From a virus: a DNA stretch of 39,556 nt. The notes below the pieces were generated by a model, which was not told where the DNA came from, did no database searches, and saw only the letters and a program-made list of their open reading frames with translations. Position numbers and translations under genes: made by a program. Shown one piece after another: positions 1 through 39,556 of this stretch (positions are counted from its first letter, which is position 1; each line of letters begins with the position of its first letter). The stretch lies in the IMG/VR virus record IMGVR_UViG_3300044495_000019. One strand, written 5' to 3'.

Positions 1-127
1 CATGCGGGCTCTGATGCGGATGCGGGAAAGTTACGAGGGTCGCATTCCCATCGATCACACGACACCCTCCGCTGACCGGCCGACGCGGGAGGAACTCGAT
101 TCGATGGTCGGCGACAAGCGCTACCTG
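1..127. repeat. Left copy of an exact 127-bp terminal duplication (identical to 39430..39556). It marks a circularly closed or permuted genome of 39,429 unique bp.
   Basis: Base-by-base comparison shows 1..127 equals 39430..39556 with no mismatch. A CDS reads in frame across the junction. Confidence 0.95.
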
Positions 128-199
128 AAAGATCCGGCATTCAGGGCGAAAGTCACTGCAGGCTTCGAGAAATTGTACGGCACCGGAGTCGTCCCGTAG
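2..199 (+). CDS. Scaffolding-like protein, C-terminal part (same gene as 38801..39556; joined length 828 nt = 275 aa)
   Basis: The frame is continuous with 38801..39556 through the repeat (39431 is equivalent to 2). Stop at 197..199. It lies immediately upstream of the capsid gene. Confidence 0.7.
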   Translation: MRALMRMRESYEGRIPIDHTTPSADRPTREELDSMVGDKRYLKDPAFRAKVTAGFEKLYGTGVVP

Positions 200-217
200 C
201 AAGTTCAAACGGGGGGA

Positions 218-246
218 TTGCATATCGTGAAATTGTGGATTACAGT
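218..246 (+). promoter_or_regulatory. Candidate sigma70-type promoter in the 200-nt leader upstream of the capsid gene
   Basis: TTGCAT (218..223), 17-nt spacer, TACAGT (241..246). Based on motif match only. Confidence 0.25.
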
Positions 247-400
247 GCGGGCAGGCTAACCGTTCGCAAGGACGGCCCTGAACAACGCTACAGCGTTCGG
301 GTGGCGCTCGTAAGGCGCAAGTACCGGCCCCGGCCTATTGGCACCGGGTCAACCGTGGCGAGAAGAAGTCTTTTTCTCAACGGATTGAAAGAGGTGCCAC

Positions 401-1240
401 ATGGCAATTCAACTCTCGACCGCCTACATCGCGCAGTTCGATGCGGAGGTCAAACAGGCATACCAGGGCACGTCGGTACTGCGCGGAACAGTGCGTACGC
501 GAACCGGTGTCGTGGGTTCCACCCATCGCTTCCCCAAGATCGGCAAGGGCGCGGCGCAGCCGCACGTTCCGCAGTCCGATGTCACGCCGATCGGCGCCAG
601 CTACAGCACGGCGACCGCAACGCTCTCCGATTGGGATGCGCCGGAATACTCGGACATCTTCATGCAGCAGAAGGTGAATTTCGACGAGCGCCGGGAACTG
701 GTGCAGGTGGTGGGCAACGCGATCGGCCGCAGGTTCGACCAGCTCATCATCAACGCGATGGTCGCGGCCTCGAGCCCGGAAACCGTCAGCAATGACATCG
801 GCGGAACGGACTCCAACCTCAACGTCACGAAGCTGATCGAGGCGAAGCGGCTGCTCGACAAGAACAACGTGCCCCCGGGCGACCGCTACATTTTGTGCCA
901 TGCGAACAACTTGGCCGGGATGCTCGCCGAAACCCAGGTCACATCCGCCGACTTCAACTCGGTCAAGGCGCTGGTGCAGGGCGAACTCAACACGTTCCTC
1001 GGCTTCAAGTTCATGACCATCGGCGACCGCGACGAGGGCGGGCTTCCGCTCGCAACCAACGATCGCAGCGTGTTCGCGTGGCACCGCCAAGCGATGGGCA
1101 TGGCGGAAGGCATCGCGCCGCGCACCGCGATCGACTGGATCCCGCAGAAAGTATCGTTCCTCGTGAACGCGGTTTTCTCAGCGGGCGCAGTCACGATCGA
1201 CGACGAAGGTGTGGTCGTCATCACCTGCGACGAAGCGTAA
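401..1240 (+). CDS. Major capsid protein (HK97-fold, N4/podovirus-type small MCP)
   Basis: ATG preceded by AAAGAGG. 279 aa. It sits after the portal and scaffold genes. The sequence pattern (FPKIGKG...NFDERRELVQVVGNAIGRRFDQLIINAM) resembles podoviral MCP families. Confidence 0.8.
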   Translation: MAIQLSTAYIAQFDAEVKQAYQGTSVLRGTVRTRTGVVGSTHRFPKIGKGAAQPHVPQSDVTPIGASYSTATATLSDWDAPEYSDIFMQQKVNFDERRELVQVVGNAIGRRFDQLIINAMVAASSPETVSNDIGGTDSNLNVTKLIEAKRLLDKNNVPPGDRYILCHANNLAGMLAETQVTSADFNSVKALVQGELNTFLGFKFMTIGDRDEGGLPLATNDRSVFAWHRQAMGMAEGIAPRTAIDWIPQKVSFLVNAVFSAGAVTIDDEGVVVITCDEA

Positions 1241-1265
1241 CCCTTAACCGCCAAGGAGATTCAAC

Positions 1266-1580
1266 ATGGCATTTGACATCGACAATCTGCAGCGAATCGG
1301 CGGCAGCGTGAAGGGCCAAACCACGAATTTCGGAGCCCCCACGATCTGGAGTTACAAGACGAATGATGCGGTCTCAGCGGTGGACGCGGCCGGCTATTTC
1401 GACAATGGCGCGACCACCAACACGGGGGCTCGCAACCTCCTGTCAATCGGAGACTTCATCTTCGTCCACGGCACGCAGGACACGGTCCCAACCTTCGGGT
1501 TGCTGGCCGTGAACGCGAACGCGAGCGGCATCGTCGACACCACGAACACGCTGCTCGGCACCACGATCGATTCCGACTAG
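1266..1580 (+). CDS. Small capsid-associated protein (possible decoration protein); T/N/G/S-rich
   Basis: AAGGAG RBS 8 nt upstream of the ATG. 104 aa. Located directly after the MCP. Confidence 0.75.
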   Translation: MAFDIDNLQRIGGSVKGQTTNFGAPTIWSYKTNDAVSAVDAAGYFDNGATTNTGARNLLSIGDFIFVHGTQDTVPTFGLLAVNANASGIVDTTNTLLGTTIDSD

Positions 1581-1591
1581 GAATTGATCGG

Positions 1592-2191
1592 ATGGCGGCG
1601 CTCTACAAGGAGCGCCACGAGGGGGCGGCCCTGGTGGTGGGGTACGCCCCCTCGGTGCGGTTAGATGTGACCGCGGCGCAACTGCTTCGTCCCGGAGCGG
1701 TGCTCCTGGGCGTCAAGTATGCGGCGGTGCTGTATCAGGAGATCGAGCACGTGTGGACGCAGCATACCGAGCAAGCTCCAGACATCCGGGTGCGCGCCGG
1801 CCGCAAAATCTCTATTCACGGCCGGCCTTCTCGTCTGCAGCATCGCCGCTCGACTTGGGTGATTCCCGGTAAGACCTCCGATCTCGATTACGCCTGGCCT
1901 AGCCTGTCATGGGTCTATGGCGGCAGCGGCTTCTGCGCCGGTCTGTGGGCGCGTCACGGCATGGGCTTTTCCGAGGTCATCCTTTGCGGAATCCCGATGG
2001 ATACTGGCGGCTACGCACCCGAGATCGCTCAATTCAAGGTGCCGCGCGGTGATGGCGGCAAGTCGTTCGTGGACGCGCCCGCGCTTGCTCGCTGGCGCAA
2101 CCTTGTATCGGAATTCTTAAAAGACGGGCGCGCGGCGGGCATCACCAGCATGAGCGGGTGGACGAGATCCGCCTTGGGGGCACCATGCTAA
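1592..2191 (+). CDS. Maf/DUF115- or CstII(GT42)-like putative glycosyltransferase, paralog 1
   Basis: ALVVGYAPSV N-terminus, GGSGFCAGLWARHGMGFSEVILCGIPMD core, GITSMSGWTRSALGAP tail. Clear paralog of 3503..4087. Confidence 0.55.
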   Translation: MAALYKERHEGAALVVGYAPSVRLDVTAAQLLRPGAVLLGVKYAAVLYQEIEHVWTQHTEQAPDIRVRAGRKISIHGRPSRLQHRRSTWVIPGKTSDLDYAWPSLSWVYGGSGFCAGLWARHGMGFSEVILCGIPMDTGGYAPEIAQFKVPRGDGGKSFVDAPALARWRNLVSEFLKDGRAAGITSMSGWTRSALGAPC

Positions 2192-2823
2192 CGGTATCTT
2201 GCGTCCTGAGAAGTGGCGGAATCTATGACGCAGAGTGGGTCAAGAAACTCCGTGATGGAGTCGCCAGGAATCTGAAAGTCGATCACCGTTTCGTTTGCTA
2301 TAGCGATACCGACGTTCCTTGTGAGCGCATCCCGTTGCGCCACAACTGGCCGGGATGGTGGGCAAAAATAGAGTTGTTCGACGGTCGCGTTTCTGGCCCA
2401 CATATCTACTTTGACTTGGATAATGTAGCGATGGGTGATCTCTCCCCGCTCATCGACTGCCAGCACGAATTCTCCATGCTGCGCAACTTCCACCGTCCGC
2501 AGCACGCAAGTTCATGCCTGATGTGGTTCAAGGAGTCAGCCCCGGCCGGCGTATGGGATAAGTTCATCTCTGATCCAAAGCGGTGGATGGAGTATTACGC
2601 AACCGACCGTAGCGGCGCCTATTGGGGCGATCAGGCATTCATTTGGGATGCGCTGGATCGCAAAGTCCCCCTCATGGATTTCCCGCGCACCGTCGTTGCC
2701 CATTACAAGCAGGACGTTGCCGCAAAGCATTGCCCTCCTCCGAGCGCTTCGATGGTTATCTTCAGTGGCAGCGTTAAGCCATCAATCGTGCAAGATGTTT
2801 GGCTCAAAAAGGCATGGGTATGA
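2185..2823 (+). CDS. GT-A fold glycosyltransferase of the phage GWW-K-ELF type
   Basis: The ATG overlaps the upstream stop (ATGCTAA). Motifs FVCYSD, NWPGWWAKIELF, YFDLDNV (DxD), GDQAF. Confidence 0.65.
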   Translation: MLTVSCVLRSGGIYDAEWVKKLRDGVARNLKVDHRFVCYSDTDVPCERIPLRHNWPGWWAKIELFDGRVSGPHIYFDLDNVAMGDLSPLIDCQHEFSMLRNFHRPQHASSCLMWFKESAPAGVWDKFISDPKRWMEYYATDRSGAYWGDQAFIWDALDRKVPLMDFPRTVVAHYKQDVAAKHCPPPSASMVIFSGSVKPSIVQDVWLKKAWV

Positions 2824-3518
2824 TCTCACTCATTCTTCCGTATTGGCAACGTCAGGCTGCGGCGGATGCGGCGCTTAGTCTGCTCGCCAAACATTACGCC
2901 GATCTCTCCCTTGAAGTGATTGTCGTGGATGATGGCTCGCCCATTCCTTTCCGCGCACCAGAAAGCATGCCCTTCGCTTTGCGAGTAATCAGACTGCAAC
3001 AGAAGAATGATCCAAAAGATCCATGTGTTCCAGTAAATGCTGGGGCGAATGCTGCTGCTGGCGATTATCTCGCGTTATCCTGCATCGAGATTCTGCATGT
3101 GAACCCGGTGCTGCCTGCGATGCTTGAGCAATGCATGAACGGTGATGAGAATACTTACGTGCTCGCAGCGGTGTGGGCTCCAGAGTCCAATCGCTGGCAT
3201 GTTCACAGTTCTCTCGCTGATGGGCGGCCCGCCGCCAGAACCAACATTCGCATGCCCATCGGGGCGCATTACAACTTCATGGCAATGATGAGCCGTTCAC
3301 TATGGGATCATTCCGGCGGTTTCGATGATGATTACCGTTCCGGTGCTGGATACGGAGATGCGGATTACATTTTGCGCTTGCAGCGCGCAGGAGCTCATTT
3401 TCATATACGCGATGACTTGGTTGTTCATCATCCTCGTGCTGGAGCGCATGCGAAATGGACGCCAGAAATGTTCGAGCGCAACCGAAAACTCTATATCAGC
3501 AAATGGGCACCGTCTTGA
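2820..3518 (+). CDS. Family-2 (GT2) glycosyltransferase
   Basis: ATGA overlap with the upstream gene. Motifs LSLEVIVVDDGSP, NAGANAAAGDYL, GGFDDDYRSGAGYGDADYILRLQRAG. Confidence 0.75.
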   Translation: MISLILPYWQRQAAADAALSLLAKHYADLSLEVIVVDDGSPIPFRAPESMPFALRVIRLQQKNDPKDPCVPVNAGANAAAGDYLALSCIEILHVNPVLPAMLEQCMNGDENTYVLAAVWAPESNRWHVHSSLADGRPAARTNIRMPIGAHYNFMAMMSRSLWDHSGGFDDDYRSGAGYGDADYILRLQRAGAHFHIRDDLVVHHPRAGAHAKWTPEMFERNRKLYISKWAPS

Positions 3519-4087
3519 TCGTGGGCTCCGCACCTTGTGTCAGAGCCGATTTGGAAGCAGCGCGGATGCTGCGACCAAGCGCAGAACATATTGCCGTCAA
3601 ATTCTCGGTGGCGATCGTCCATGCTGCGATCGCCGTCACGCATCACGCTGAGCATGCGAGCCGCATGAAGAAGCTGCACCGCGAAATATGGGGCGATGAG
3701 GTCTATATTCACATGCCGAAGAAACTCATCAAGCCGGAATTCATGCCGTATATCGACTACATCTGGAGTGAACTTGCTGGTGTTGGAGGTACTTCATCTT
3801 GGGGTGCCGCGCGCCTCGCGAAACTCCTTGGATACGAGGAAGTAATCCTCTGCGGTTGCCCTCTGGAAAGCGCGAAGGATGGCGAGCTCTACCATGATGC
3901 CGAGATTTTCGAGGCAGCTAATCGTGTCGGGGCATCGCGCCATCGCGGGGAGCCGTGGGCGAATGAGGCGGCCGTGCGCCAATATCAACGTAAGATTTCC
4001 GACCAGGTCGATCAAGGATTGGCGACCGGAATTTATTCGATGAGCGGCTGGACCCGCGATAAATTAGGAGCGCCCAATGGCCGGTGA
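3503..4087 (+). CDS. Maf/DUF115- or CstII(GT42)-like putative glycosyltransferase, paralog 2
   Basis: VLIVGSAPCV N-terminus, GGTSSWGAARLAKLLGYEEVILCGCPLE core, GIYSMSGWTRDKLGAP tail. Start chosen at the ATG inside the track ORF 3455..4087. Confidence 0.55.
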   Translation: MGTVLIVGSAPCVRADLEAARMLRPSAEHIAVKFSVAIVHAAIAVTHHAEHASRMKKLHREIWGDEVYIHMPKKLIKPEFMPYIDYIWSELAGVGGTSSWGAARLAKLLGYEEVILCGCPLESAKDGELYHDAEIFEAANRVGASRHRGEPWANEAAVRQYQRKISDQVDQGLATGIYSMSGWTRDKLGAPNGR

Positions 4088-4691
4088 AACAGACATCTCG
4101 ATTTGCTCATCCGCACTGATCCTGCTCGGACAACCGGCGATTGCTTCCTTCACCGAGGATTCCGATGCCGCACGCACTTGTGCGCAACTCTACGAGACGC
4201 AGAAGGCGGCATTGCTGGCCGCCTACCCGTGGGCCTTCAGCAAGAAAAAGGTGCAGTTGGCGCGTTTGGTGACGGCGCCTATCTCCGGGTGGAGTTACCA
4301 ATATACGATGCCGACCGACCGGGTAGGCGAAGCATTCGCCGTGTTTTCATCAAGCGCTGTCGGTGCGCGCCCGATCCTCGAATACGACATCCAGGCGGGG
4401 CGGCTCCTCGCTGGTGCGACCGAACTCTGGCTCGACTATCAATACAACGCGGATGAAGCCGATATGCCGGCGCATTTTGTCCAGCTTCTTGTATTCGTGC
4501 TGGCATCGATCTTCGCCGAGCCGGTGACTGAAGTTACCAGCAAGAGTGCCTACTGGCATGAGATCGCTTACGGAAACCCGTCGGATAACATGCGCGGCGG
4601 CTACTTTCGCACGGCAGTCGGCATTGACGGCCGCGGACACCCGAATCAGGCAATCAATTCCGACGAGCTGATCAACGTGAGATTCGCCTGA
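4077..4691 (+). CDS. Tail tubular protein A / adaptor (T7 gp11-like)
   Basis: 204 aa. The N-terminus ISICSSALILLGQPAIASFTEDSDAARTCAQLYE...PWAF parallels the T7 gp11 N-terminus. It precedes the gp12-like gene. Confidence 0.7.
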   Translation: MAGETDISICSSALILLGQPAIASFTEDSDAARTCAQLYETQKAALLAAYPWAFSKKKVQLARLVTAPISGWSYQYTMPTDRVGEAFAVFSSSAVGARPILEYDIQAGRLLAGATELWLDYQYNADEADMPAHFVQLLVFVLASIFAEPVTEVTSKSAYWHEIAYGNPSDNMRGGYFRTAVGIDGRGHPNQAINSDELINVRFA

Positions 4692-6676
4692 TGGCCCGGT
4701 TTGTCTCGATACAGAGTAACTTCAGCGTCGGCGAAATCGACCCGCTGGTGCGCGCTCGACTCGACCTCCAGCAGTATTACAACGCCTGTCAGCAAGGCCG
4801 CAACGTGCTGTTTCAGCCGCAGGGTGGGTTTCGTTGGCGGCCCGGAACGAAGTTCATCTTTCAGCTACCGTCAGCAGCGAATCCCGGGAGTGGCGTCAAG
4901 TGCGTCCCGTTCGAGTTCTCGGTGGATGATTCCTACATGCTGGTATTCGTGAATCTCCGCATGTACGTGTTCAAGAATAAAGCCCTCGTCACTGACATCA
5001 ACGGCGTGACCGATCAGGATTATCTTGTGACGACGATTACTTCCGCCATGCTCGCCGAGATGAGCTGGACGCAATCTGCGGATACTCTGATCGTCGTCGA
5101 AAAGGATATGGAGCCGAAGAAGATCGTGCGCGGCGTGACCGACGCCGACTGGACGATCTCAGACATCACATTTGATTCGATACCGCTCTATCAATTCACG
5201 ACTACGACGATCAACGAGCCGGCGGCGACACTCACTCCTTCCGCGACCAGTGGCAATATCACACTGACTGCCAGTGCCCCCGTATTCGTAGCCGGGGATG
5301 TCGGAAAATACGTGAACGCCGAACCGGCCGGTCGCGCCCGCGTTCTCGGATTCACCAGCACGACCATTCTTTCCGCGGTAGTGGAAATTCCATTCTTTTC
5401 TACCACAGCGATTGCTTCCGGCTCCTGGGATCTGGAGGGCAATTACGAAGAAGTCTGGTCGAGTACCCGCGGCTGGCCGCGCACTTGCGTATTCCACGAA
5501 GGCCGTCTGTTCTTCGGTGGTTCCAAGTCGCGCCCCTCTACGGTGTGGGGCAGTCGCGTCGGCTTCTTCTTTGAGTTCTCACAATCGACCGGCTTTGCGG
5601 ATGACGCGGTGGAGCATACCACGGGCTCTGGGCGCTTCAACGCCATCACCGACATGATCAGCGGTCGTGATCTGCAAGTGTTCACCACTGGCGGCGAATA
5701 CTTTGTCCCTCAATCCGCAAGCGAACCGATCACGCCAGATAACTTCTTCATCAAGACCGCGACCCCGAATGGCTCACGCGTGGGCGTGCGCGTACAGCAA
5801 CTCGAATCCGGCACGCTTTATGTCCAGCGCGAGGGCAAGGCGCTACAGGAATTCCTGTTCAACGATGTTGAGCTCGCCTACATCTCGAACAAGATCAGCC
5901 TTCTCTCCGGGCATTTCCTACTGGAGCCGAAGCGCATGGCGTTGCGCCGGGCAACTTCCACTGATGAGGGCGATCTGCTACTCATCACCAACGATTTAGA
6001 CGGCACGATGGGTGCGTGGATGCTGCTGCGCTCGCAGAACGTGATCGCGCCATCGCTCTGGTCAACCGAGGGCTCGTTCATCGACGTGGCGGTGGACGTG
6101 GATACGATCTACACGGTGGTCGAGCGCCAGATCGGCTCCAACTTCGAGTATTACGTCGAGGTATTCGATCTCGATTTGAACACCGATTGCGCCTTCACCG
6201 GCGCTGCGGCATCAAGCGCTTCCGGTATTCCATATACCAGCTTGACGGTAGACCTCCTGCTTGATGGCACGGTGCAGGAGCAGCAGACGGTGGATGGTTC
6301 AGGCGTCGTCACCTTCCCGCGCGCCTCAGTGACTTCCTACGAGTTGGGGATTCCTTTCACTCCGATCGTGACAACGATGCCAGCCGAGCCGAGGCTAGCG
6401 GCTGGCGTTCGCGTCGGATTCAAAAAACGCATCCCGCAAGTCAATACGATGGTGAAGGACACGCAACACTTCACGGTGAACGGGCAGGAAGTATCATTCC
6501 GCACTTTCGGTTCATCGCTACTGGACGAGCCAGTCGTGGAGTTCACAGGTACAAAGCGCATCGGAGGATTGCTCGGGTACTCAGAGGAAGCGCAGATCAC
6601 CTTCTCGCGCACGGTGCCATTGAAGGCTACGATTCTTGGCGTCGATTATCGCGTCGCCGTTCACGGAGGTACCTGA
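4691..6676 (+). CDS. Tail tubular protein B / nozzle (T7 gp12-like)
   Basis: 661 aa. The N-terminus SNFSVGEIDPLVRARLDLQQYYNACQ...RPG is typical of podoviral nozzle proteins. TGATG overlap with the upstream gene. Confidence 0.7.
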   Translation: MARFVSIQSNFSVGEIDPLVRARLDLQQYYNACQQGRNVLFQPQGGFRWRPGTKFIFQLPSAANPGSGVKCVPFEFSVDDSYMLVFVNLRMYVFKNKALVTDINGVTDQDYLVTTITSAMLAEMSWTQSADTLIVVEKDMEPKKIVRGVTDADWTISDITFDSIPLYQFTTTTINEPAATLTPSATSGNITLTASAPVFVAGDVGKYVNAEPAGRARVLGFTSTTILSAVVEIPFFSTTAIASGSWDLEGNYEEVWSSTRGWPRTCVFHEGRLFFGGSKSRPSTVWGSRVGFFFEFSQSTGFADDAVEHTTGSGRFNAITDMISGRDLQVFTTGGEYFVPQSASEPITPDNFFIKTATPNGSRVGVRVQQLESGTLYVQREGKALQEFLFNDVELAYISNKISLLSGHFLLEPKRMALRRATSTDEGDLLLITNDLDGTMGAWMLLRSQNVIAPSLWSTEGSFIDVAVDVDTIYTVVERQIGSNFEYYVEVFDLDLNTDCAFTGAAASSASGIPYTSLTVDLLLDGTVQEQQTVDGSGVVTFPRASVTSYELGIPFTPIVTTMPAEPRLAAGVRVGFKKRIPQVNTMVKDTQHFTVNGQEVSFRTFGSSLLDEPVVEFTGTKRIGGLLGYSEEAQITFSRTVPLKATILGVDYRVAVHGGT

Positions 6677-6678
6677 CC

Positions 6679-7122
6679 ATGATGTGGGTCGCCATTGCCG
6701 CTGTCGCACTCCAAGCCTACAGCTCCGTCAAGCAGGGCCAGCAGGAGCAAAAGCTCTACGAGCAGCAGGCAGAACAAGCACGCTTTCAGGCTCGCGTGCA
6801 GGCCACGCAATACGAGCAGCAGGCTAACCGAATGCTCAAGGCGTCCCTTGAAACGCAAGCCGCAGCTCGGGCGCGGGCGGCCGCTGGCGGCGTGGACCCA
6901 TTCTCTGGCTCGGCCGGCTTCGTGCAGGACTTGAGCGCGAAGGAAGGAATCGAGGATTTCAAGATCCTGTCAGATAGCGCCACGCTTGCCCGCGAGAGCG
7001 GTCAACTTCAGGGGCAAATCTACGAGGATGCGGGCCGTTATGCGCGGCGCCGGGGGCTATTGGGAGCTGCTACAGCCATCGGACAGGGTGCGGCGAGTTA
7101 TGGCCGGATAGGTGGCAGGTAA
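6679..7122 (+). CDS. Internal virion protein (N-terminal TM, Q/A-rich coiled coil)
   Basis: 147 aa. Located after the nozzle gene, as for T7 core proteins. Confidence 0.6.
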   Translation: MMWVAIAAVALQAYSSVKQGQQEQKLYEQQAEQARFQARVQATQYEQQANRMLKASLETQAAARARAAAGGVDPFSGSAGFVQDLSAKEGIEDFKILSDSATLARESGQLQGQIYEDAGRYARRRGLLGAATAIGQGAASYGRIGGR

Positions 7123-8801
7123 TGGCTGAAGCGCTTCCCCGCTACCGCTCTCGCGCCCTCTTGGGCGATGTGCCCCGGCTCGACTTCGCCGCGGGCCGTG
7201 AGCAAGTGCGGCTGCAGTCTCAGTTCACCGAGACGTTGAATCGCATGTCGAAATTCGCCTTCGGCGTGGCCGAGGAGGAAGCCCGAGAGAAGGGACTGCA
7301 ATACGGGGCCGAGAACCCGGTCACGGCCGAGCAGATTCGGGAGGCGACTGCTTCAGGACGCGATCCAGAAACGCTCTTTCAGGGCAAGCGCGGCGTATTC
7401 GGGCGCACGGTGTTCGGGGAAGCGGCGCGTGCCGCACAGGTGGCTTCCGTGGCATCCGAGATTCAGAGCGAAGCGCAGACGAAATTGGGTGCGCTGACAG
7501 TTGGCGTTGAGCGTGGCGAGATTCCGCTTGATAAAGCACGCTCCGATATTCAGGCAATGCTGGATGGCTATAGCAACGCGCTCGTCACGGTTGATCCAAA
7601 GACTTCGGTGCGGCTGCGCGCGGCGCTTGCGACGGACGCCAATTCGACATTCCTCAAGATCACGCAAACCTATTTCAAGAAGCAGGACGAGTTGCGCAAG
7701 GTCGCGGTCGATGCCTGGATCAATAACACGTTGCCCGGAATGATCCAAGCGCATATAGAAGCAGGCGCGACGCTCGATCCGCAAGGCGGGAAGATCACGC
7801 CGCAGCAGCGCATCGACACATTGAAGCCCGTATTGATGAACCAACTCGCTGCGATCGGAGACGATACCTATGCTCGGCAGGCAATGGAGAAGTTCGACAA
7901 GACCGTATCGCGGGCGCGTGTCAATGCTGTTTCCTCCTTCGTTGCCCAAGACGAATTCATGCGGGATCCTTCGGCTGCTCTCACTCAAATTCGTTCGGGA
8001 AACCTGGGCGCGATGTCCGATCTCTACAAGTCGATGCCTGCCTCGGAACAGGAGGACGTTCGCAAGAACTTCATGGAGGAAGCCGGCCGCATTCACACGT
8101 TGACTGAGCGTGCCGTCAAGACGGGCGAGGACGAGGCGAAAAATAAGGTATTCGATCTGGCATCCCGCTACTGGCTGATGCCGGATGGACCGGCGAAGGA
8201 TGGCGTACGAAATCAGATCATCGAGGCCGGGCGCGGGGTGATGAGTTTCGACCAATTGAAATCGCTTCTCAAAACAACGGACGAGCATGAGAACGTGCCG
8301 CTTGAAGTGGAGGCGCAGCGCTTGATTAGGCGCACTGGCGTCACTGACATCTCGGAGATTCAGCGCCGCGTGCCGGGACTGCAGCCGAAGCAGTTGCGGC
8401 GCCTGCAGGACATGATTCTTGATTCTGGTGACAGGTCGCTGCGCGAAGGCATCCGCACGATGGCGGGGATTCCCGATGGCTTGGTGCAGATGACGGGAGA
8501 CCAGCAGCGTCGTTTCCAGGCATTGACCGAAGAAGCTGAGAGGCTGAAATCCGAGGCGATCGCAAAAACCGGCGCTTACGATCCAAATATCGTGCTGGGC
8601 GAGCTACGCTCCACGAAGGAGCGCATCACCGCGGACAAGGCGGTTGACTCCGCGAAAGCCTCGCTTGAGGGATTTGGAGCGACCAAGAACGTGAAGATAG
8701 ACGAGAACACTTCTGAGGCAGAATTGAAGAAATTAAACTTCACTGCTCCCGAAATCCGCGAGATCGAGCGGCAACAGCGCATCATCAAGGGCCAGCGATG
8801 A
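7122..8801 (+). CDS. Internal virion / ejection protein
   Basis: 559 aa, helical and charged. TAATG overlap with the upstream gene. Confidence 0.55.
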   Translation: MAEALPRYRSRALLGDVPRLDFAAGREQVRLQSQFTETLNRMSKFAFGVAEEEAREKGLQYGAENPVTAEQIREATASGRDPETLFQGKRGVFGRTVFGEAARAAQVASVASEIQSEAQTKLGALTVGVERGEIPLDKARSDIQAMLDGYSNALVTVDPKTSVRLRAALATDANSTFLKITQTYFKKQDELRKVAVDAWINNTLPGMIQAHIEAGATLDPQGGKITPQQRIDTLKPVLMNQLAAIGDDTYARQAMEKFDKTVSRARVNAVSSFVAQDEFMRDPSAALTQIRSGNLGAMSDLYKSMPASEQEDVRKNFMEEAGRIHTLTERAVKTGEDEAKNKVFDLASRYWLMPDGPAKDGVRNQIIEAGRGVMSFDQLKSLLKTTDEHENVPLEVEAQRLIRRTGVTDISEIQRRVPGLQPKQLRRLQDMILDSGDRSLREGIRTMAGIPDGLVQMTGDQQRRFQALTEEAERLKSEAIAKTGAYDPNIVLGELRSTKERITADKAVDSAKASLEGFGATKNVKIDENTSEAELKKLNFTAPEIREIERQQRIIKGQR

Positions 8802-21793: not shown

Positions 21794-22699
21794 TCATGCC
21801 CAATCTTCGGCTTCGATCTTGGTAATAAAGAAATGAATACCATGCGAGCATTCGTTGGTAAAGTCGCTGTCCCACTTATCTGCGGTCACGCGCTTACCCA
21901 CGCGGTATTCGATCTTGTTGTCGTGCGTGCCGTTGAAGGCTGATTTCTTGCCATTAGATATTTCCAGCACATCGGCAAATTCGGCGCGGCATTTGCGCCC
22001 AAAGGCGTGAGAGCGTTTAGCATTTGCAGGGATAGAGAGTTTGATGATCTCGCCTTTTGATCCTTTCTTATAGCCAATGATCTGTCCTTCTGGCAGGATT
22101 CGCGTATAGGCGATAATGCGCGCGGCGTTTTTCGAGCCGCTCAGGTTGCTGCCGCTCAGGTTGCTGCCGCGCAGGTTGCTGTCGCGCAGGTTGCTGCCGC
22201 TCAGGTTGCTGTAGCTCAGGTTGCTGTAGCGCAGGTCGCTGCCGCTCAGGTTGCTGCCGCTCAGGTTGCTGCCGCTCAGGTTGCTGTAGCTCAGGTTGCT
22301 GCCGCGCAGGTTGCTGCCGCGCAGGTTGCTGCCGCTCAGGTCGCTGCCGCTCAGGTTGCTGTAGCTCAGGTTGCTGCCGCGCAGGTTGCTGCCGCTCAGG
22401 TCGCTGCCGCTCAGGTTGCTGTAGCTCAGGTTGCTGCCGCTCAGGTTGCTGTAGCTCAGGTTGCTGCCGCTCAGGTTGCTGCCGCTCAGGTCGCTGCCGC
22501 TCAGGTTGCTGTAGCTCAGGTTGCTGCCGCTCAGGTTGCTGTCGCGCAGGTTGCTGTCGCGCAGGTTGCTGCCGCTCAGGTCGCTGTAGCTCAGGTTGCT
22601 GTAGCTTTTTACGGCTGTTTCAAGACAGATTTTCAAGTTATCGCACTCAAGCGCAAACAGAACATTCCCGGTAAAACGATGCTTGATCTCAAATTTCAT
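21794..22699 (-). CDS. Pentapeptide-repeat protein (31 consecutive S-[ND]-L-x-x units) with a C-terminal DUF5758-like domain
   Basis: AAGGAGGGG RBS, then an ATG at 22699 in an ATGA overlap with the upstream gene. Repeats are SNLSG/SNLSY/SDLSG/SNLRG/SNLRD. C-terminus ...KCRAEFADVLEI...ECSHGIHFFITKIEAEDW. Confidence 0.85.
   Translation of the reverse strand: MKFEIKHRFTGNVLFALECDNLKICLETAVKSYSNLSYSDLSGSNLRDSNLRDSNLSGSNLSYSNLSGSDLSGSNLSGSNLSYSNLSGSNLSYSNLSGSDLSGSNLRGSNLSYSNLSGSDLSGSNLRGSNLRGSNLSYSNLSGSNLSGSNLSGSDLRYSNLSYSNLSGSNLRDSNLRGSNLSGSNLSGSKNAARIIAYTRILPEGQIIGYKKGSKGEIIKLSIPANAKRSHAFGRKCRAEFADVLEISNGKKSAFNGTHDNKIEYRVGKRVTADKWDSDFTNECSHGIHFFITKIEAEDWA
22136..22600. repeat. Tandem array of 31 near-identical 15-bp units (coding repeats of the pentapeptide protein)
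   Basis: The + strand reads GCTCAGGTTGCTGCC and single-base variants back to back. Fully in frame within 21794..22699. Confidence 0.95.
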
Positions 22700-23016
22700 T
22701 GCCCCTCCTTCGTCAAAAACCAGCAGAACTCCTCGACCGGCCATCTGACCGGCAGACAAACGTAAGCGGCGCCTTTGGCATCCACGCCTTGGACGGGTGC
22801 AACGGGGACAGGAATCGAACCTGCTGTCTCCGAAACTATGCCTTCATGACTGGCACTATGTTCCGGCGAGGTTCCGTGGGCATCATCGCGAATAACGCCC
22901 CGCGCCACCTCCCCTCCCGTTGCATTGAGATAGACCATCATCGGTATCACGATGAGGGGGTAGAGCTTCAGGCGCCAGTCCCAGATGGTGCGGTGGCGTT
23001 GATGGACGGTTTTCAT
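22696..23016 (-). CDS. Hypothetical protein with an N-terminal hydrophobic segment
   Basis: The ATG overlaps the upstream stop (TAATG) and the stop overlaps the downstream ATG (ATGA). 106 aa. Confidence 0.5.
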   Translation of the reverse strand: MKTVHQRHRTIWDWRLKLYPLIVIPMMVYLNATGGEVARGVIRDDAHGTSPEHSASHEGIVSETAGSIPVPVAPVQGVDAKGAAYVCLPVRWPVEEFCWFLTKEGQ

Positions 23017-27119: not shown

Positions 27120-27866
27120 TCATGCCCGGCGCTTGAGCAGGTTCGCCACTTGGGACGGGTGCCAGTTGAGGTTGCCGCGCGGGGTCGAGACGCCCCTGTC
27201 GGTGAGCCCCCGGGCGATTTCCCGCAATGTGGAATAGCCGTGGCGGGTAAGCTCGCGCACGATCGGCATCACCTTCACCGCGAAGTCGTCGGCCTGGCGT
27301 TTCAAGGTCGCCACCCCCAGCTTGTTGCCGTGCATGGGCGAGGGAGAACCTAGCGCGAGGATTCGATGGGTGACAACGCCGCGTGAATCCTTGACCTCAT
27401 GGTATCCCTGTTTCTTGATCTTGTTGCTGACGGTTTGTAATGCGGCTGACGTACGCTGTCCGATCAGGTCGCTTTCGTGTTCAGCGATCGCCGCGAGCAG
27501 GTGAATCGTCAGCTTGTTCGCGTGCGGGTTGTCACACGCTACGAAGTTGATTCCAGACTCCATAAGTGCCGTCATCGCGTGTACGTTGCGGTAGAGGCGG
27601 TCGAGTTTGGCGACGATCAACGTCGCCTTTTCCTTGCGGCACATTTCGAGCGCCTTCATCAACTGCGGGCGCTTCCTTGTGCGTCCTGACTCGATCTCGG
27701 TGAAGCTGCCGATCAGCGTCCAAGGCCCGCCGTTCAGATATGTATTGACAGCCTCGCGCTGTGCTTCCAGCCCGAGGCCAGAATCCCCCTGCTTCTTCGT
27801 GGAAACACGGTAGAGCGCGACGTAGCGGCCGGTGTGTGGGCGCCCGTGGCTGCGGTCTGGGGTCAT
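27120..27866 (-). CDS. Small serine recombinase (resolvase/invertase family, 248 aa)
   Basis: YVALYRVSTKKQGDSGLGLEAQ catalytic-Ser motif, IVAKLDRLYRN, C-terminal HTH-like LREIARGLTDRGVSTPRG. AGGAGG RBS. Confidence 0.85.
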   Translation of the reverse strand: MTPDRSHGRPHTGRYVALYRVSTKKQGDSGLGLEAQREAVNTYLNGGPWTLIGSFTEIESGRTRKRPQLMKALEMCRKEKATLIVAKLDRLYRNVHAMTALMESGINFVACDNPHANKLTIHLLAAIAEHESDLIGQRTSAALQTVSNKIKKQGYHEVKDSRGVVTHRILALGSPSPMHGNKLGVATLKRQADDFAVKVMPIVRELTRHGYSTLREIARGLTDRGVSTPRGNLNWHPSQVANLLKRRA

Positions 27867-31792: not shown

Positions 31793-32205
31793 AACCATTG
31801 ACGCAGGAGTTGCTCGAGGCGCGGGCGAGGAATGAGGCGCGGCTACGCGAATTGGACAAGCCGGTGAAGCCCGCGACGACGGGAACGAGTTACGCAGCCG
31901 CACGCATGAACTGCCCGAATCACACGGGAGCGGCGGACAAGATTCGCGATGCGCTGCGCCACGCGGCCGGGCCGTTGTCCGTCTACAAGCTGCATCTGGC
32001 GACGAGTCTTGATACCGCTGTCATACGCCGCGTGCTGACGCAGTTGATGAACGGCGGCGGTGTCGTATCGCTGCCGGGTATCAAGGCCCGCGTTTATTCG
32101 CTCTACGCGAGAGTGCCGAGGGAAAAGCATCACTCGGGCTCGGGGCAGGTGGCGGGCCGCATCACGATACCGCAGTTCAATTGGAAAGGTACGAGGCTGG
32201 GATGA
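31789..32205 (+). CDS. Hypothetical protein (possible wHTH)
   Basis: GTGA overlap with the upstream gene and ATGA overlap with the downstream gene. 138 aa. Confidence 0.5.
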   Translation: MKPLTQELLEARARNEARLRELDKPVKPATTGTSYAAARMNCPNHTGAADKIRDALRHAAGPLSVYKLHLATSLDTAVIRRVLTQLMNGGGVVSLPGIKARVYSLYARVPREKHHSGSGQVAGRITIPQFNWKGTRLG

Positions 32206-33809
32206 ATCACTGCGAAATCGGTGACTGCCGCGAGATCATGCGCCGCTGGATCGACGATGGCGTCAAGGTGCAGATGTGCGTGACGAGTCCGCCGTACTGG
32301 GGTTTACGGGATTACGGAGTACCCGGGCAGCTCGGCCTCGAATCCACGCCCGAGGAATACGTCGCCAACATGGTCGAAATGTTCCGGCTGGTGCGCGAGC
32401 TGCTGGCGGATGATGGGACGCTGTGGCTGAATCTCGGGGACTCGTATTGCGCCAGCCCTAAGGGCAATCTTAACGGCCAAGACAAGAGTGGGCTGACGTC
32501 TACCAGAACTCAGGAGGCGTCGATTGTGGGGTTCTCAAAGCGCGGCAGCAATGTTCCACAGACCAAGAATCCCAACGTCTCTTACCCAGCCGACGCAGGA
32601 CATCGTCGCGTCTACATTCCCGGACTTAAGCCCAAAGACCTCGTAGGCATCCCGTGGGCTGTAGCACGCGCACTCCAAGCGCCCTACTACACTGGACGGA
32701 TTCCTAGAGAGCGTGATCGGGTTTGGTTGGCCGCCATGATTGATGGCGAGGGAAGCATTTGCGGATTTGATCATGACAGAGCGGACGGTGGTGGCCATAG
32801 GAGCGGGGTCCACATCACAATTACCAATACGTCAATTCCGCTGCTTGATGAGGCTGCGCGCATTTGGCCTACAAGTCGCAGCGAGCATCAACGCCCTTAT
32901 GCTGGACATTTAGGCACCAAGATTTCCTATCGCTGGTTGGTTCACAGCGTCGAAAACAAACTCGCTGTGTTACGCGAATTGTATCCGCACCTGATCGCAA
33001 AACGTCAGCAGGCCACCGTCGCTTATTCAATGCTACTGCTCATGGCAGATGCGAAGCGCCTCGGGCACTCGTCTCAGAAGGATGCGACGTTAGAAAAGCG
33101 GGCACTTCTGACTGCGCTACTTTCCGATCTCAATCACCAACGCCCAGTGACGCTTCCTGATTGGTTGACGGAGCCGCCAAGTCTCTTTGAACCGGGCTGG
33201 TATTTGCGCAGCGAGATTACCTGGTGCAAAAAGGTTCCGATGCCAGAATCCGTTACTGACAGGCCGACTTCTGCGACGGAAAAGATTTTCCTGCTCAGTA
33301 AGTCCGGACGCTACTACTACGATGCCGATGCCGTGCGTAACCCGCCGTCAGAAGCGTTCTTGAATGATCCACGATGGGAAACAGGATCAACTCTTGAGAA
33401 CGAGAAAGACGGGTACGAGGCTGCTGGAGCGCAGAATCCGAAGAAGCTGCATCGCATGTTCGACAAGCAGCGCGGCCACTCCAGACCCCACGCGGGGTTC
33501 AATGACCGATGGGACTCCATGCCGAAGGCCGAACAAATGAAGTTCGGCAGCAACATGCGGAATTACTGGGTACTGGGGCCAGAGCCGTACCCGGAAGCGC
33601 ATTTCGCCACCTTTCCACGTGAGATTCCGCGACGTTGCATCCTCGCTGGCTCGCGCTCGGGTGACATCGTGCTTGACCCCTTCATGGGGAGCGGAACCAC
33701 TGGAGAAGTGGCGCAGAATCTCGGACGTCAGTGGTTGGGCTGCGAGTTGAATCGGGATTACGTTCCGCTTCAACACGAACGCACGAAGCAACTTGGGATG
33801 GTGCTATGA
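32202..33809 (+). CDS. N4/N6 DNA methyltransferase (PF01555-type, SPPY motif) carrying an internal domain insertion
   Basis: MCVTSPPYWGLRDY, TLWLNLGDSYC, LKPKDLVGIPWAVARAL, then the insert, then GWYLRSEITWCKK, DRPTSATEKIFLLSK, VLDPFMGSGTTGEVA. Confidence 0.85.
   Translation: MNHCEIGDCREIMRRWIDDGVKVQMCVTSPPYWGLRDYGVPGQLGLESTPEEYVANMVEMFRLVRELLADDGTLWLNLGDSYCASPKGNLNGQDKSGLTSTRTQEASIVGFSKRGSNVPQTKNPNVSYPADAGHRRVYIPGLKPKDLVGIPWAVARALQAPYYTGRIPRERDRVWLAAMIDGEGSICGFDHDRADGGGHRSGVHITITNTSIPLLDEAARIWPTSRSEHQRPYAGHLGTKISYRWLVHSVENKLAVLRELYPHLIAKRQQATVAYSMLLLMADAKRLGHSSQKDATLEKRALLTALLSDLNHQRPVTLPDWLTEPPSLFEPGWYLRSEITWCKKVPMPESVTDRPTSATEKIFLLSKSGRYYYDADAVRNPPSEAFLNDPRWETGSTLENEKDGYEAAGAQNPKKLHRMFDKQRGHSRPHAGFNDRWDSMPKAEQMKFGSNMRNYWVLGPEPYPEAHFATFPREIPRRCILAGSRSGDIVLDPFMGSGTTGEVAQNLGRQWLGCELNRDYVPLQHERTKQLGMVL
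32679..33194 (+). other. In-frame I-CreI-like single-motif LAGLIDADG domain inserted in the methyltransferase core
   Basis: LAAMIDGEGSI (32727..32759) followed by ITITNTSIPLLDEAARIW and YRWLVHSVENKLAVLRELYPHLIAKRQQATVA. More AT-rich than the flanks. Confidence 0.6.
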
Positions 33810-38801: not shown

Positions 38802-39556
38802 TGGTCGAAGCCGCAGCAGTAGTCACAGATGCCGTACCGAATCCAGATGCAAAAGGCTTGATCGACGACGCCAAGCCTGTCACGGATGCGCCGAAGCCGG
38901 AAGATCAGGATGGCGTTGCCGGCGCGCACTTGGTCAAAGACACGACTGCGGATGCGCAGGCCGCCGAACTCGCCAAGCGCGAGCGCCCCGCCTACCTGCC
39001 GGAGAAGTTTTGGGATGCCGAGAAGAAAGAAGCGCGGCTCGATGTCATGTCGAAATCCTATTCCGAACTCGAAAAGAACTTCAAGCTCGGCAAGCACAAG
39101 GCTCCCACCGACGGCAAGTATTCGATGGACGTTTTTGCCGACAAGATTCCAGAGAATGATCCGCTGCGCACGGCCTACATCGCTTGGGCGACGAAGTATG
39201 GGCTATCCCAGGGCGCATTCGACGAGTTGGCCGGGCAGGTATCCGAACTCTCAGCCGCCAGCGAGAAGGAATTTCAAGTTTCCTACAAGGCCGAGCGCGA
39301 AGCTCTCGGCGCGAATGCGGATGCCATCATCAACTCGATGACCGATTGGGCGCGCGGGTTTGTCAGGTCCGGCGTCTGGTCAACCGAAGACTTCGAGGAG
39401 TTCAAGGTGATGGGCGGCACCGCCGCTGGCATGCGGGCTCTGATGCGGATGCGGGAAAGTTACGAGGGTCGCATTCCCATCGATCACACGACACCCTCCG
39501 CTGACCGGCCGACGCGGGAGGAACTCGATTCGATGGTCGGCGACAAGCGCTACCTG
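38801..39556 (+). CDS. Scaffolding-like protein, N-terminal part (continues across the circular junction to 199)
   Basis: ATG at 38801. Open to the end of the window and in the same frame as 2..199 via the 127-bp repeat. Acidic/helical with ERPAYLPEKFWD. Located between the portal and the MCP. Confidence 0.7.
   Translation, partial: MVEAAAVVTDAVPNPDAKGLIDDAKPVTDAPKPEDQDGVAGAHLVKDTTADAQAAELAKRERPAYLPEKFWDAEKKEARLDVMSKSYSELEKNFKLGKHKAPTDGKYSMDVFADKIPENDPLRTAYIAWATKYGLSQGAFDELAGQVSELSAASEKEFQVSYKAEREALGANADAIINSMTDWARGFVRSGVWSTEDFEEFKVMGGTAAGMRALMRMRESYEGRIPIDHTTPSADRPTREELDSMVGDKRYL
39430..39556. repeat. Right copy of the exact 127-bp terminal duplication
   Basis: Identical to 1..127. The window ends exactly at the end of the repeat. 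Confidence 0.95.

Follow-up and report, generated by a model that had tools for sequence, protein, structure and literature searches.

A capsid-adjacent, four-gene glycosyltransferase cassette with a Maf-like core as a candidate virion-glycosylation system of a MEP301-type phage

Maf O-glycosylates flagellin, and chloroviruses, whose hosts are eukaryotic, encode a cytoplasmic multi-enzyme system of capsid glycosylation (PBCV-1 A064R-type enzymes) that includes fused glycosyltransferase-methyltransferase proteins and yields atypical, N-linked glycans. To our knowledge, virion glycosylation by phage-encoded enzymes has been demonstrated experimentally only for actinobacteriophages, where it alters antibody recognition. 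It is documented for the mycobacteriophages Che8, Corndog and Myrna (Freeman et al. 2023, cited in PMC11256854 and PMC12619734). Where these two texts take up the system, they describe soluble glycosyltransferases, proposed or shown to modify capsid and tail-tube subunits in the cytoplasm, and a glycan shield (PMC11256854, PMC12619734); the passages citing it mention no Maf-like component, and one of the texts places the glycosyltransferase genes of cluster F1 phages near the 3' end of the genome and not at the capsid-tail junction (PMC11256854). Those phages are siphoviruses and myoviruses of actinobacterial hosts, whereas the locus described here belongs to a podovirus. It lies in a 39,556-nt stretch of viral DNA, IMG/VR record IMGVR_UViG_3300044495_000019 (the window, throughout), where four genes, named A to D, occupy positions 1592-4087 between the major capsid gene and the gene of a gp11-like tail adaptor.

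The region 1592-4087 is filled by four open reading frames (ORFs) on the + strand. Gene A (1592..2191, +, 199 aa) and gene D (3503..4087, +, 194 aa, starting at the ATG used by its homologs) encode the two paralogs of a predicted single-domain Maf/DUF115-like type. Between them stand gene B (2185..2823, +, 212 aa from ATG), a putative GT8-like retaining GT-A enzyme with an invariant D-L-D, and gene C (2814 or 2820..3518, +, 232-234 aa), a putative GT2-like inverting GT-A enzyme. Start and stop codons overlap at every junction, by 7 nt between A and B (ATGCTAA), by 4 nt (ATGA) or 10 nt between B and C, by 16 nt between C and D, and by 11 nt between D and the downstream gene for tail tubular protein A; gene calling done independently on 18 contigs of this phage gave identical lengths. 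A consensus scan of positions 1-7200 found no excess of promoter-like or terminator-like sites, which together with the overlaps suggests that the four genes belong to the late structural operon. Membrane-helix-like hydropathy is absent from the island proteins (19-residue windows, maximum 1.59). The island is one translationally coupled string of four soluble enzymes within the structural operon.

An initial annotation, made from the nucleotide sequence, had described this coupling and the lack of transmembrane segments, and both descriptions hold. The motifs it quoted are also all present: ALVVGYAPSVRLD and GGSG...EVILCGIPMD in A, VLIVGSAPCVRAD and GGTS...EVILCGCPLE in D, NWPGWWAKIELF and YFDLDNV in B, and VVDDGS and FDDDYRSGAGYGDADY in C. 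Its remark that the island is AT-rich applies to B, C and D (GC 0.54, 0.53 and 0.57) but not to A, which at 0.64 has the highest GC content of the region; the capsid gene stands at 0.625. GC at third codon positions (GC3) is 0.63 in B, 0.51 in C (the region minimum) and 0.62 in D, compared with 0.84 in the capsid gene. The annotation had also stated that sugar-biosynthesis genes are missing. This is correct for the window, where no sugar-nucleotide synthesis gene was found, but related islands carry GDP-mannose-dehydratase-like proteins and methyltransferases.

By sequence comparison A and D are paralogs, as had been proposed (33% identity over about 200 aa, E 5e-26). A shares the family motifs in the homolog alignment, and its orthologs in loci L003-L010 are 65-70% identical to it. 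Direct searches with A and D found no match in Pfam (E<=1), PHROGs, NCBIfam, PDB sequences or 50,697 phage records, and the link to Maf becomes visible only with the profile built on the homolog alignment and with the predicted structure. The AlphaFold model computed for D from this alignment (pLDDT 94.4) has the fold of the Maf-type central catalytic domain, a sialyltransferase-like GT-A variant. Its top PDB match in Foldseek is Maf (5mu5, E 8.4e-4, prob 1.0), with the human sialyltransferase ST8SiaIII at rank 5. The best PDB match of the sequence profile is again 5mu5_A (E 0.005), aligned over Maf residues 274-435, the central catalytic domain, so that the structural and the profile check put the same protein first. 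The profile match to Campylobacter Cst-I (2p2v), which follows, covers only 27 residues, the GGTS...LGY..ILCG stretch, at a weak E of 1.1; matches of the D model in BFVD are phage and giant-virus proteins labelled MptE-like/DUF115 (TM 0.5-0.6); and three relatives reach 23-27 bits on PF01973, below its cut-off of 34.6.

Compared with Magnetospirillum Maf (5mu5), A and D have in common the N-terminal (I/V)VG(S/G)xPS..D and the G.(T/S)...A..LG...(I/L).L.G motifs, and both proteins are cytoplasmic. The differences are in architecture and context. The 5mu5 chain has 666 aa, and A and D lack the domains that flank the catalytic core of the ~650-aa Maf, so its multi-domain architecture is not found here. 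Maf is encoded in flagellar glycosylation islands, whereas A and D sit in phage virion modules; no flagellin gene and no gene for CMP-pseudaminic or CMP-legionaminic acid synthesis was found in the window, no CMP-nonulosonic-acid synthesis genes lie near A and D, and their neighbours are phage capsid and tail genes. In fold, A and D go with Maf/DUF115 (sialyltransferase-like), as divergent single-domain forms that lie outside the curated family. The likeness to Maf and DUF115 suggested by the initial annotation stands as one of fold and remote homology, and that to CstII as the short motif-level match to Cst-I. As for the chlorovirus and giant-virus systems, DUF115-like giant-virus proteins are among the BFVD fold matches, and the kinship shown here goes no further than the fold class.

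The family to which A and D belong is large. A full hidden Markov model (HMM) search of 1.84 billion representative proteins recovered 1,986 clusters at 50% identity; a word-indexed protein search had undercounted it, with 31 matches. In cellular genomes the family was found on just two contigs of metagenome-assembled genomes (MAGs) among 185,579 species, and it looks phage-restricted, its members lying almost entirely in capsid, neck and tail modules. Some members are fused to GT2 or methyltransferase domains, which resemble the glycosyltransferase-methyltransferase fusions of the chlorovirus type. Four proteins (P0173, P0245, P0197 and P0202) have 610-690 aa, a Maf-like domain at about 245-445 and a C-terminal GT2 or class I methyltransferase domain. 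One of the two MAG contigs, the alphaproteobacterial CAYUYV010000069.1 (L089, 8697-16118), was inspected and has a phage capsid module: terminase, portal, capsid, small protein and Maf-like genes are followed directly by HlyD and AcrB efflux genes of the RND type; this is possibly a truncated prophage, a relic of a capsid module or a chimeric contig.

B matches phrog_1962, annotated as glycosyltransferase (E 1e-42). Its family profile retrieves from the PDB the Skp1 alpha-galactosyltransferase (6mw5, 5e-5), glycogenin (4.5e-3) and other GT8 chains, and sub-threshold Pfam GT8 matches occur in 7 of 37 homologs of B (best 1.2e-4) and not in B itself. Residues D77-L78-D79 are invariant in the 37 homologs and align with the DxD of 6mw5 and glycogenin, the family reading YlDLD where the GT8 protein-directed transferases have YIDAD and FMDAD; the nucleotide-binding region is aligned, and the similarity is remote. 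On this sequence evidence B is a GT8-like GT-A enzyme with a DxD motif. A tblastn search with B of the phage records found matches in P1-like, jumbo and pelagiphage genomes. The P1 homolog PmgQ (P7 HdmD) is 31.6% identical over 97% of the length (E 5e-23) and is labelled 'putative morphogenetic function' in some records and glycosyltransferase in RefSeq. The P1 gene (NC_005856.1, 81449-82111), a late gene, adjoins the phosphatase gene ppp and not capsid or Maf-like genes.

C reaches 19.2 bits on PF00535, where the cut-off is 23.3, and has an MftF-like match (E 2e-15); its orthologs have PF00535 on record, and its family profile matches chondroitin synthase (2.6e-14) and DPMS (2e-6). The N-terminal DDGS is invariant in the family, and C can be classed from its sequence as GT2-like. 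The acidic patch of C, noted in the initial annotation, lies in a stretch alignable with chondroitin synthase, a solved GT2 enzyme, and is presumably the usual C-terminal GGFDE...G.ED.D motif of GT2/GT7 enzymes and no oddity. With this, all four ORFs belong to glycosyltransferase-type families by profile or fold evidence, as the initial annotation had it.

Comparison with relatives identifies the island as a real insertion into the late structural operon. It is bordered upstream by the major capsid protein gene (401..1240, +; PF19821, E 5e-76; phrog_3437), whose product is a possible glycan acceptor, and downstream by the gene for tail tubular protein A, the gp11-like adaptor (4077..4691, +; phrog_394, E 7.5e-34). 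The gap between these two genes is about 315-490 nt in Methylophilales phage MEP301, in "Dunaliella viridis virus SI2" and in about 60 IMG/VR relatives, with about 370 nt as the round figure for these relatives, compared with 2,840 nt here; in MEP301 and SI2 the capsid gene is followed by a small gene and then directly by tail tubular A. Among 80 IMG/VR loci found with the capsid protein, all those with capsid identity of 68% or less have the short gap, and the island is limited to a close clade (>=73%). Island-bearing and island-free clades interleave on a neighbour-joining capsid tree, a rough one without support values, which indicates repeated gain or loss at one slot.

The same position is used far beyond this clade. 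We surveyed the 67 IMG/VR loci with a Maf-like gene and enough upstream sequence; a PF19821-type capsid gene lies on the same strand within 2.6 kb upstream in 54 of these viral contigs, at a median distance of 434 nt, just the length of the small gene. The capsid proteins of Maf-like loci are 24-91% identical to that of the window, and more distant members of the Maf-like family are placed likewise. The survey of related genomes that had been suggested as a check found island-type cassettes recurring behind the capsid gene. Their size ranges from one Maf-like gene to about ten genes. A single D-type gene stands alone in L092-L107, and L009 has A plus D only; A-type and B-type genes are paired in L108-L116; A, B, a methyltransferase, C and D follow one another in L003-L005; and L006, L123 and the P0026 contig hold larger sets, in which GT1-like, GT2 and other glycosyltransferases are joined by methyltransferases and a GDP-mannose-dehydratase-family enzyme. 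The Maf-like genes are the constant core, and the other cassette genes are swapped among relatives.

Two of these loci show how the cassette changes and moves. In L006 (9774-12581), whose capsid protein is 91% identical to that of the window, C is swapped for a phrog_14945 glycosyltransferase, a basic 106-aa protein, a GT1-like PF13524 protein and a GDP-mannose-dehydratase-family enzyme, a replacement that indicates cassette swapping between near relatives. In the lambda-like siphovirus locus L087 (6202-9216), a Neck1/tail-completion gene is followed by two tandem Maf-like genes and a phrog_1962 glycosyltransferase, and this trio indicates that the combination of A/D with B travels as a unit between unrelated virion modules. 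The L087 phage also has a cement (decoration) protein.

Taken together, the island is very probably a modular glycan-building cassette with a Maf-like core. As to its target, the reading we favour, to which we give roughly an even chance, is that the late-expressed cassette glycosylates a virion protein in the host cytoplasm. It is based on the embedding in the late operon, on the restriction of the Maf-like family to phage capsid and neck modules across lineages, and on solved relatives that are protein-directed; these include the cytoplasmic transferases Maf, Skp1 galactosyltransferase and glycogenin. The initial annotation had proposed a virion-glycosylation pathway on the position and composition of the island. 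That proposal is strengthened by the tie of the Maf-like family to capsid and neck modules in many lineages, but a virion protein as substrate is still conjecture.

In such a scheme, a short glycan would be put on a virion surface protein in the host cytoplasm, before or during assembly. By analogy with Maf on flagellin, the Maf-like enzymes may carry out the protein-directed step or steps, and the two paralogs might serve separate acceptor sites or separate donors, or pair as a heterodimer. Extension of the glycan from host nucleotide sugars would fall to the GT8-like and GT2-like enzymes, and in relatives the methyltransferases and the GDP-mannose-dehydratase-type enzyme would diversify it. 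The variable content of the cassettes suggests diversifying selection on a surface glycan. Candidate acceptors are the capsid protein and the 104-aa protein encoded upstream of the island, with its Thr-rich TTNTG loop.

This small conserved protein (1266..1580, +; phrog_18004, E 1e-10) has counterparts in almost every related locus, whether or not the island is there. Alignment and a motif scan located in it a Thr-rich insertion of seven residues, GYFDNGATTNTG (1392..1427, +), which gives GYFDNG(A/S/T/G)TTNTG in the clade of the window, in L139 (60% capsid identity) and in L125 (31%). The insertion is present in 15 loci with a Maf-like gene, from three lineages, and in no locus without one; it is absent from 54 loci with and 59 without a Maf-like gene. 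The initial annotation had asked whether the island co-occurs with a specific capsid or decoration allele; in the small protein, the insertion is seen only in Maf-bearing genomes, and the 54 island-bearing loci do without it. In the lineages with the full insertion an A-type paralog stands beside the small gene, or, in L125, a Maf-like gene equally distant from A and D, and the clade with D only lacks the TTNTG insertion. We treat the TTNTG loop as a candidate acceptor, a lead and not a result. The small protein also has a conserved VGD core and, in the majority of the relatives aligned, with or without the island, a conserved C-terminal (D/N)(S/T)D.

Several points weigh against the virion-glycosylation reading. 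The TTNTG correlation comes from three independent lineages, with a chance expectation of about 0.16, and most island-bearing genomes lack the insertion; on the strength of the lineage count and these absences, we rejected it as strong evidence. The structure model of the small protein, built from five sequences, failed (pLDDT 43.8), and the protein is only a candidate for virion membership. In the C family the canonical DxD after the fourth strand is replaced, the position reading LS(N/C)(P/I)E(I/V)xH, with E92 and H95 invariant. The TM-score of the D model against Maf is modest (0.45, query-normalised, TMq), and A and D stay below the Pfam threshold for DUF115, which includes a kinase (MptE). 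Cultured phages, as represented by the 50,697 records, contain neither A nor D, and tblastn with A, B and D against the same records matched no Mycobacterium phage; the kinship of B with mycobacteriophage virion glycosyltransferases claimed in the initial annotation is not borne out. The capsid-adjacent position could be merely a permissive, highly expressed insertion hotspot. Finally, the transferase activity of A and D, like the glycan and its virion-protein target, is something that we infer.

The best-surviving alternative, which we nevertheless consider unlikely, is that, in lysogens or at a late stage of infection, the cassette modifies a glycoconjugate of the host envelope, be it the core or O-antigen of lipopolysaccharide (LPS), the capsule or a host glycoprotein such as flagellin; masking of receptors could keep progeny from being lost on debris, or block superinfection. 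The absence of membrane segments, which had been used as an argument against host-surface targets, does not exclude this and proves a weak argument, GT8 and GT2 being classic LPS-core and polysaccharide families with many soluble or peripheral members. Maf enzymes, matched here through 5mu5, do act on flagellin, the variability of the cassettes resembles that of O-antigen loci, and lysogeny is conceivable with a resolvase-domain protein encoded in the genome. However, the island has no promoter or terminator signal of its own and is translationally coupled to virion genes, which makes expression in a lysogen unlikely. Known serotype-converting phage glycosyltransferases are membrane proteins encoded near the integration module; the island proteins, with hydropathy no higher than 1.59 and genes in the structural operon, are unlike this Gtr type. 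The Maf-like family is, moreover, hardly represented in bacterial genomes and, in unrelated phages, goes with capsid and neck genes. The authors of the MEP301 study doubt that the resolvase-domain protein of that phage works as an integrase (PMC8024684).

Less probable still is the view that A and D are not glycosyltransferases but another kind of nucleotide-binding, Rossmann-like protein, such as an MptE-like kinase or an assembly factor, with the island a set of accessory genes in a permissive hotspot behind the highly expressed capsid gene. The failure of A and D to match Pfam, PHROG or NCBIfam, the modest Foldseek values (E 8e-4 and the TM-score given above) and the fact that PF01973 also covers a pterin pyrophosphokinase are in keeping with this view, and the low GC3 of B and C suggests a separate acquisition. 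Against it, the structural and the profile search, each independent of the other, rank Maf first and sialyltransferases after it, members of the family are fused to GT2 and methyltransferase domains, an unrelated siphovirus again combines A/D-type genes with a B-type glycosyltransferase, and the neighbours are always sugar-handling enzymes.

That the cassette glycosylates phage DNA against restriction, in the manner of T4 glucosylation or of glycan hypermodification of 5-hydroxymethylcytosine (Pyle et al.), is a role often assigned to phage glycosyltransferases and has a multi-glycosyltransferase precedent in DNA hypermodification (bioRxiv 10.1101/2023.12.21.572611), and a DNA methylase is encoded in the window (542 aa, 32181-33809, +), but this explanation is highly improbable and was rejected as the main explanation because no base-activating enzyme was found: a scan of about 40 ORFs (Pfam or PHROG, one library per ORF, several ORFs staying without annotation) contained no hydroxymethylase, TET/JBP-type dioxygenase, C5-methyltransferase or other base-activating gene, the sole methylase is of the N6/N4 type, the cassette belongs to the structural operon and is remote from replication and recombination genes, and the nearest solved relatives have proteins or glycans, not DNA, as substrates.

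The phage that carries the island is of the MEP301 type. The window is a complete circular assembly with an exact 127-bp direct repeat at its ends (1-127 and 39430-39556) and a unique genome length of 39,429 bp; the circular junction is crossed by the scaffold gene (PF05396 in relatives), and at least 18 contigs, assembled from several samples, represent this phage and show identical gene calls. Samples that contain it are JGI 3300034164 and 3300034114 and SRR35361035-38. MEP301 is the closest isolate, with 65% identity in the capsid protein and 46% in tail tubular protein A; tail tubular B (phrog_376) is likewise encoded downstream of the island. Megablast of positions 1-8000 against cultured phages gave no match. 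MEP301 has a T7-like order of structural genes (PMC8024684). The initial annotation had taken the present phage for a T7-type podophage, which is right for the structural order but not for the type of phage: no RNA or DNA polymerase was found in the whole window, and the resemblance to T7 is limited to the order of the module. Besides the N6/N4 DNA methylase, the genome encodes a RecE-like exonuclease, an AAA_24 protein, an HNH nuclease, a protein with a resolvase N-terminal domain (27120-27866, -), as in MEP301, and a pentapeptide-repeat protein of 321 aa (21794-22759, -) with a C-terminal DUF5758 (Pfam E 2.6e-48 and 1.7e-22). The largest non-coding gap of the structural module, 200 nt, lies between the scaffold and capsid genes (200-400).

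The comparative pattern is robust and previously unreported. In our literature search, from which the primary mycobacteriophage paper was missing, we found neither Maf-like enzymes described from phage structural modules nor a comparable cassette reported for podoviruses that infect Gram-negative hosts. We set aside as irrelevant the Acinetobacter 'RNA and Sugars' paper, which deals with host lipid-linked glycans on a cystovirus and not with phage-encoded glycosylation. We tentatively put forward a broader proposal, for which the balance is still somewhat unfavourable: that miniature, phage-restricted, Maf-like protein O-glycosyltransferases seed a hypervariable glycan coat in abundant aquatic podoviruses and some siphoviruses of Gram-negative hosts, that the capsid-tail slot is a viral 'O-antigen locus' under diversifying selection, and that the phrog_18004 protein with its TTNTG loop is one acceptor. 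One concrete tryptic peptide, TNDAVSAVDAAGYFDNGATTNTGAR, is directly checkable in metaproteomes. If the cassette does glycosylate virions, a large family of orphan proteins would acquire a function, the hypervariable hotspot amid a conserved structural operon would be accounted for, and self-glycosylation would be widespread among uncultured aquatic phages of Gram-negative bacteria; glyco-engineering would also be offered candidate protein glycosyltransferases as compact as ~195 aa.

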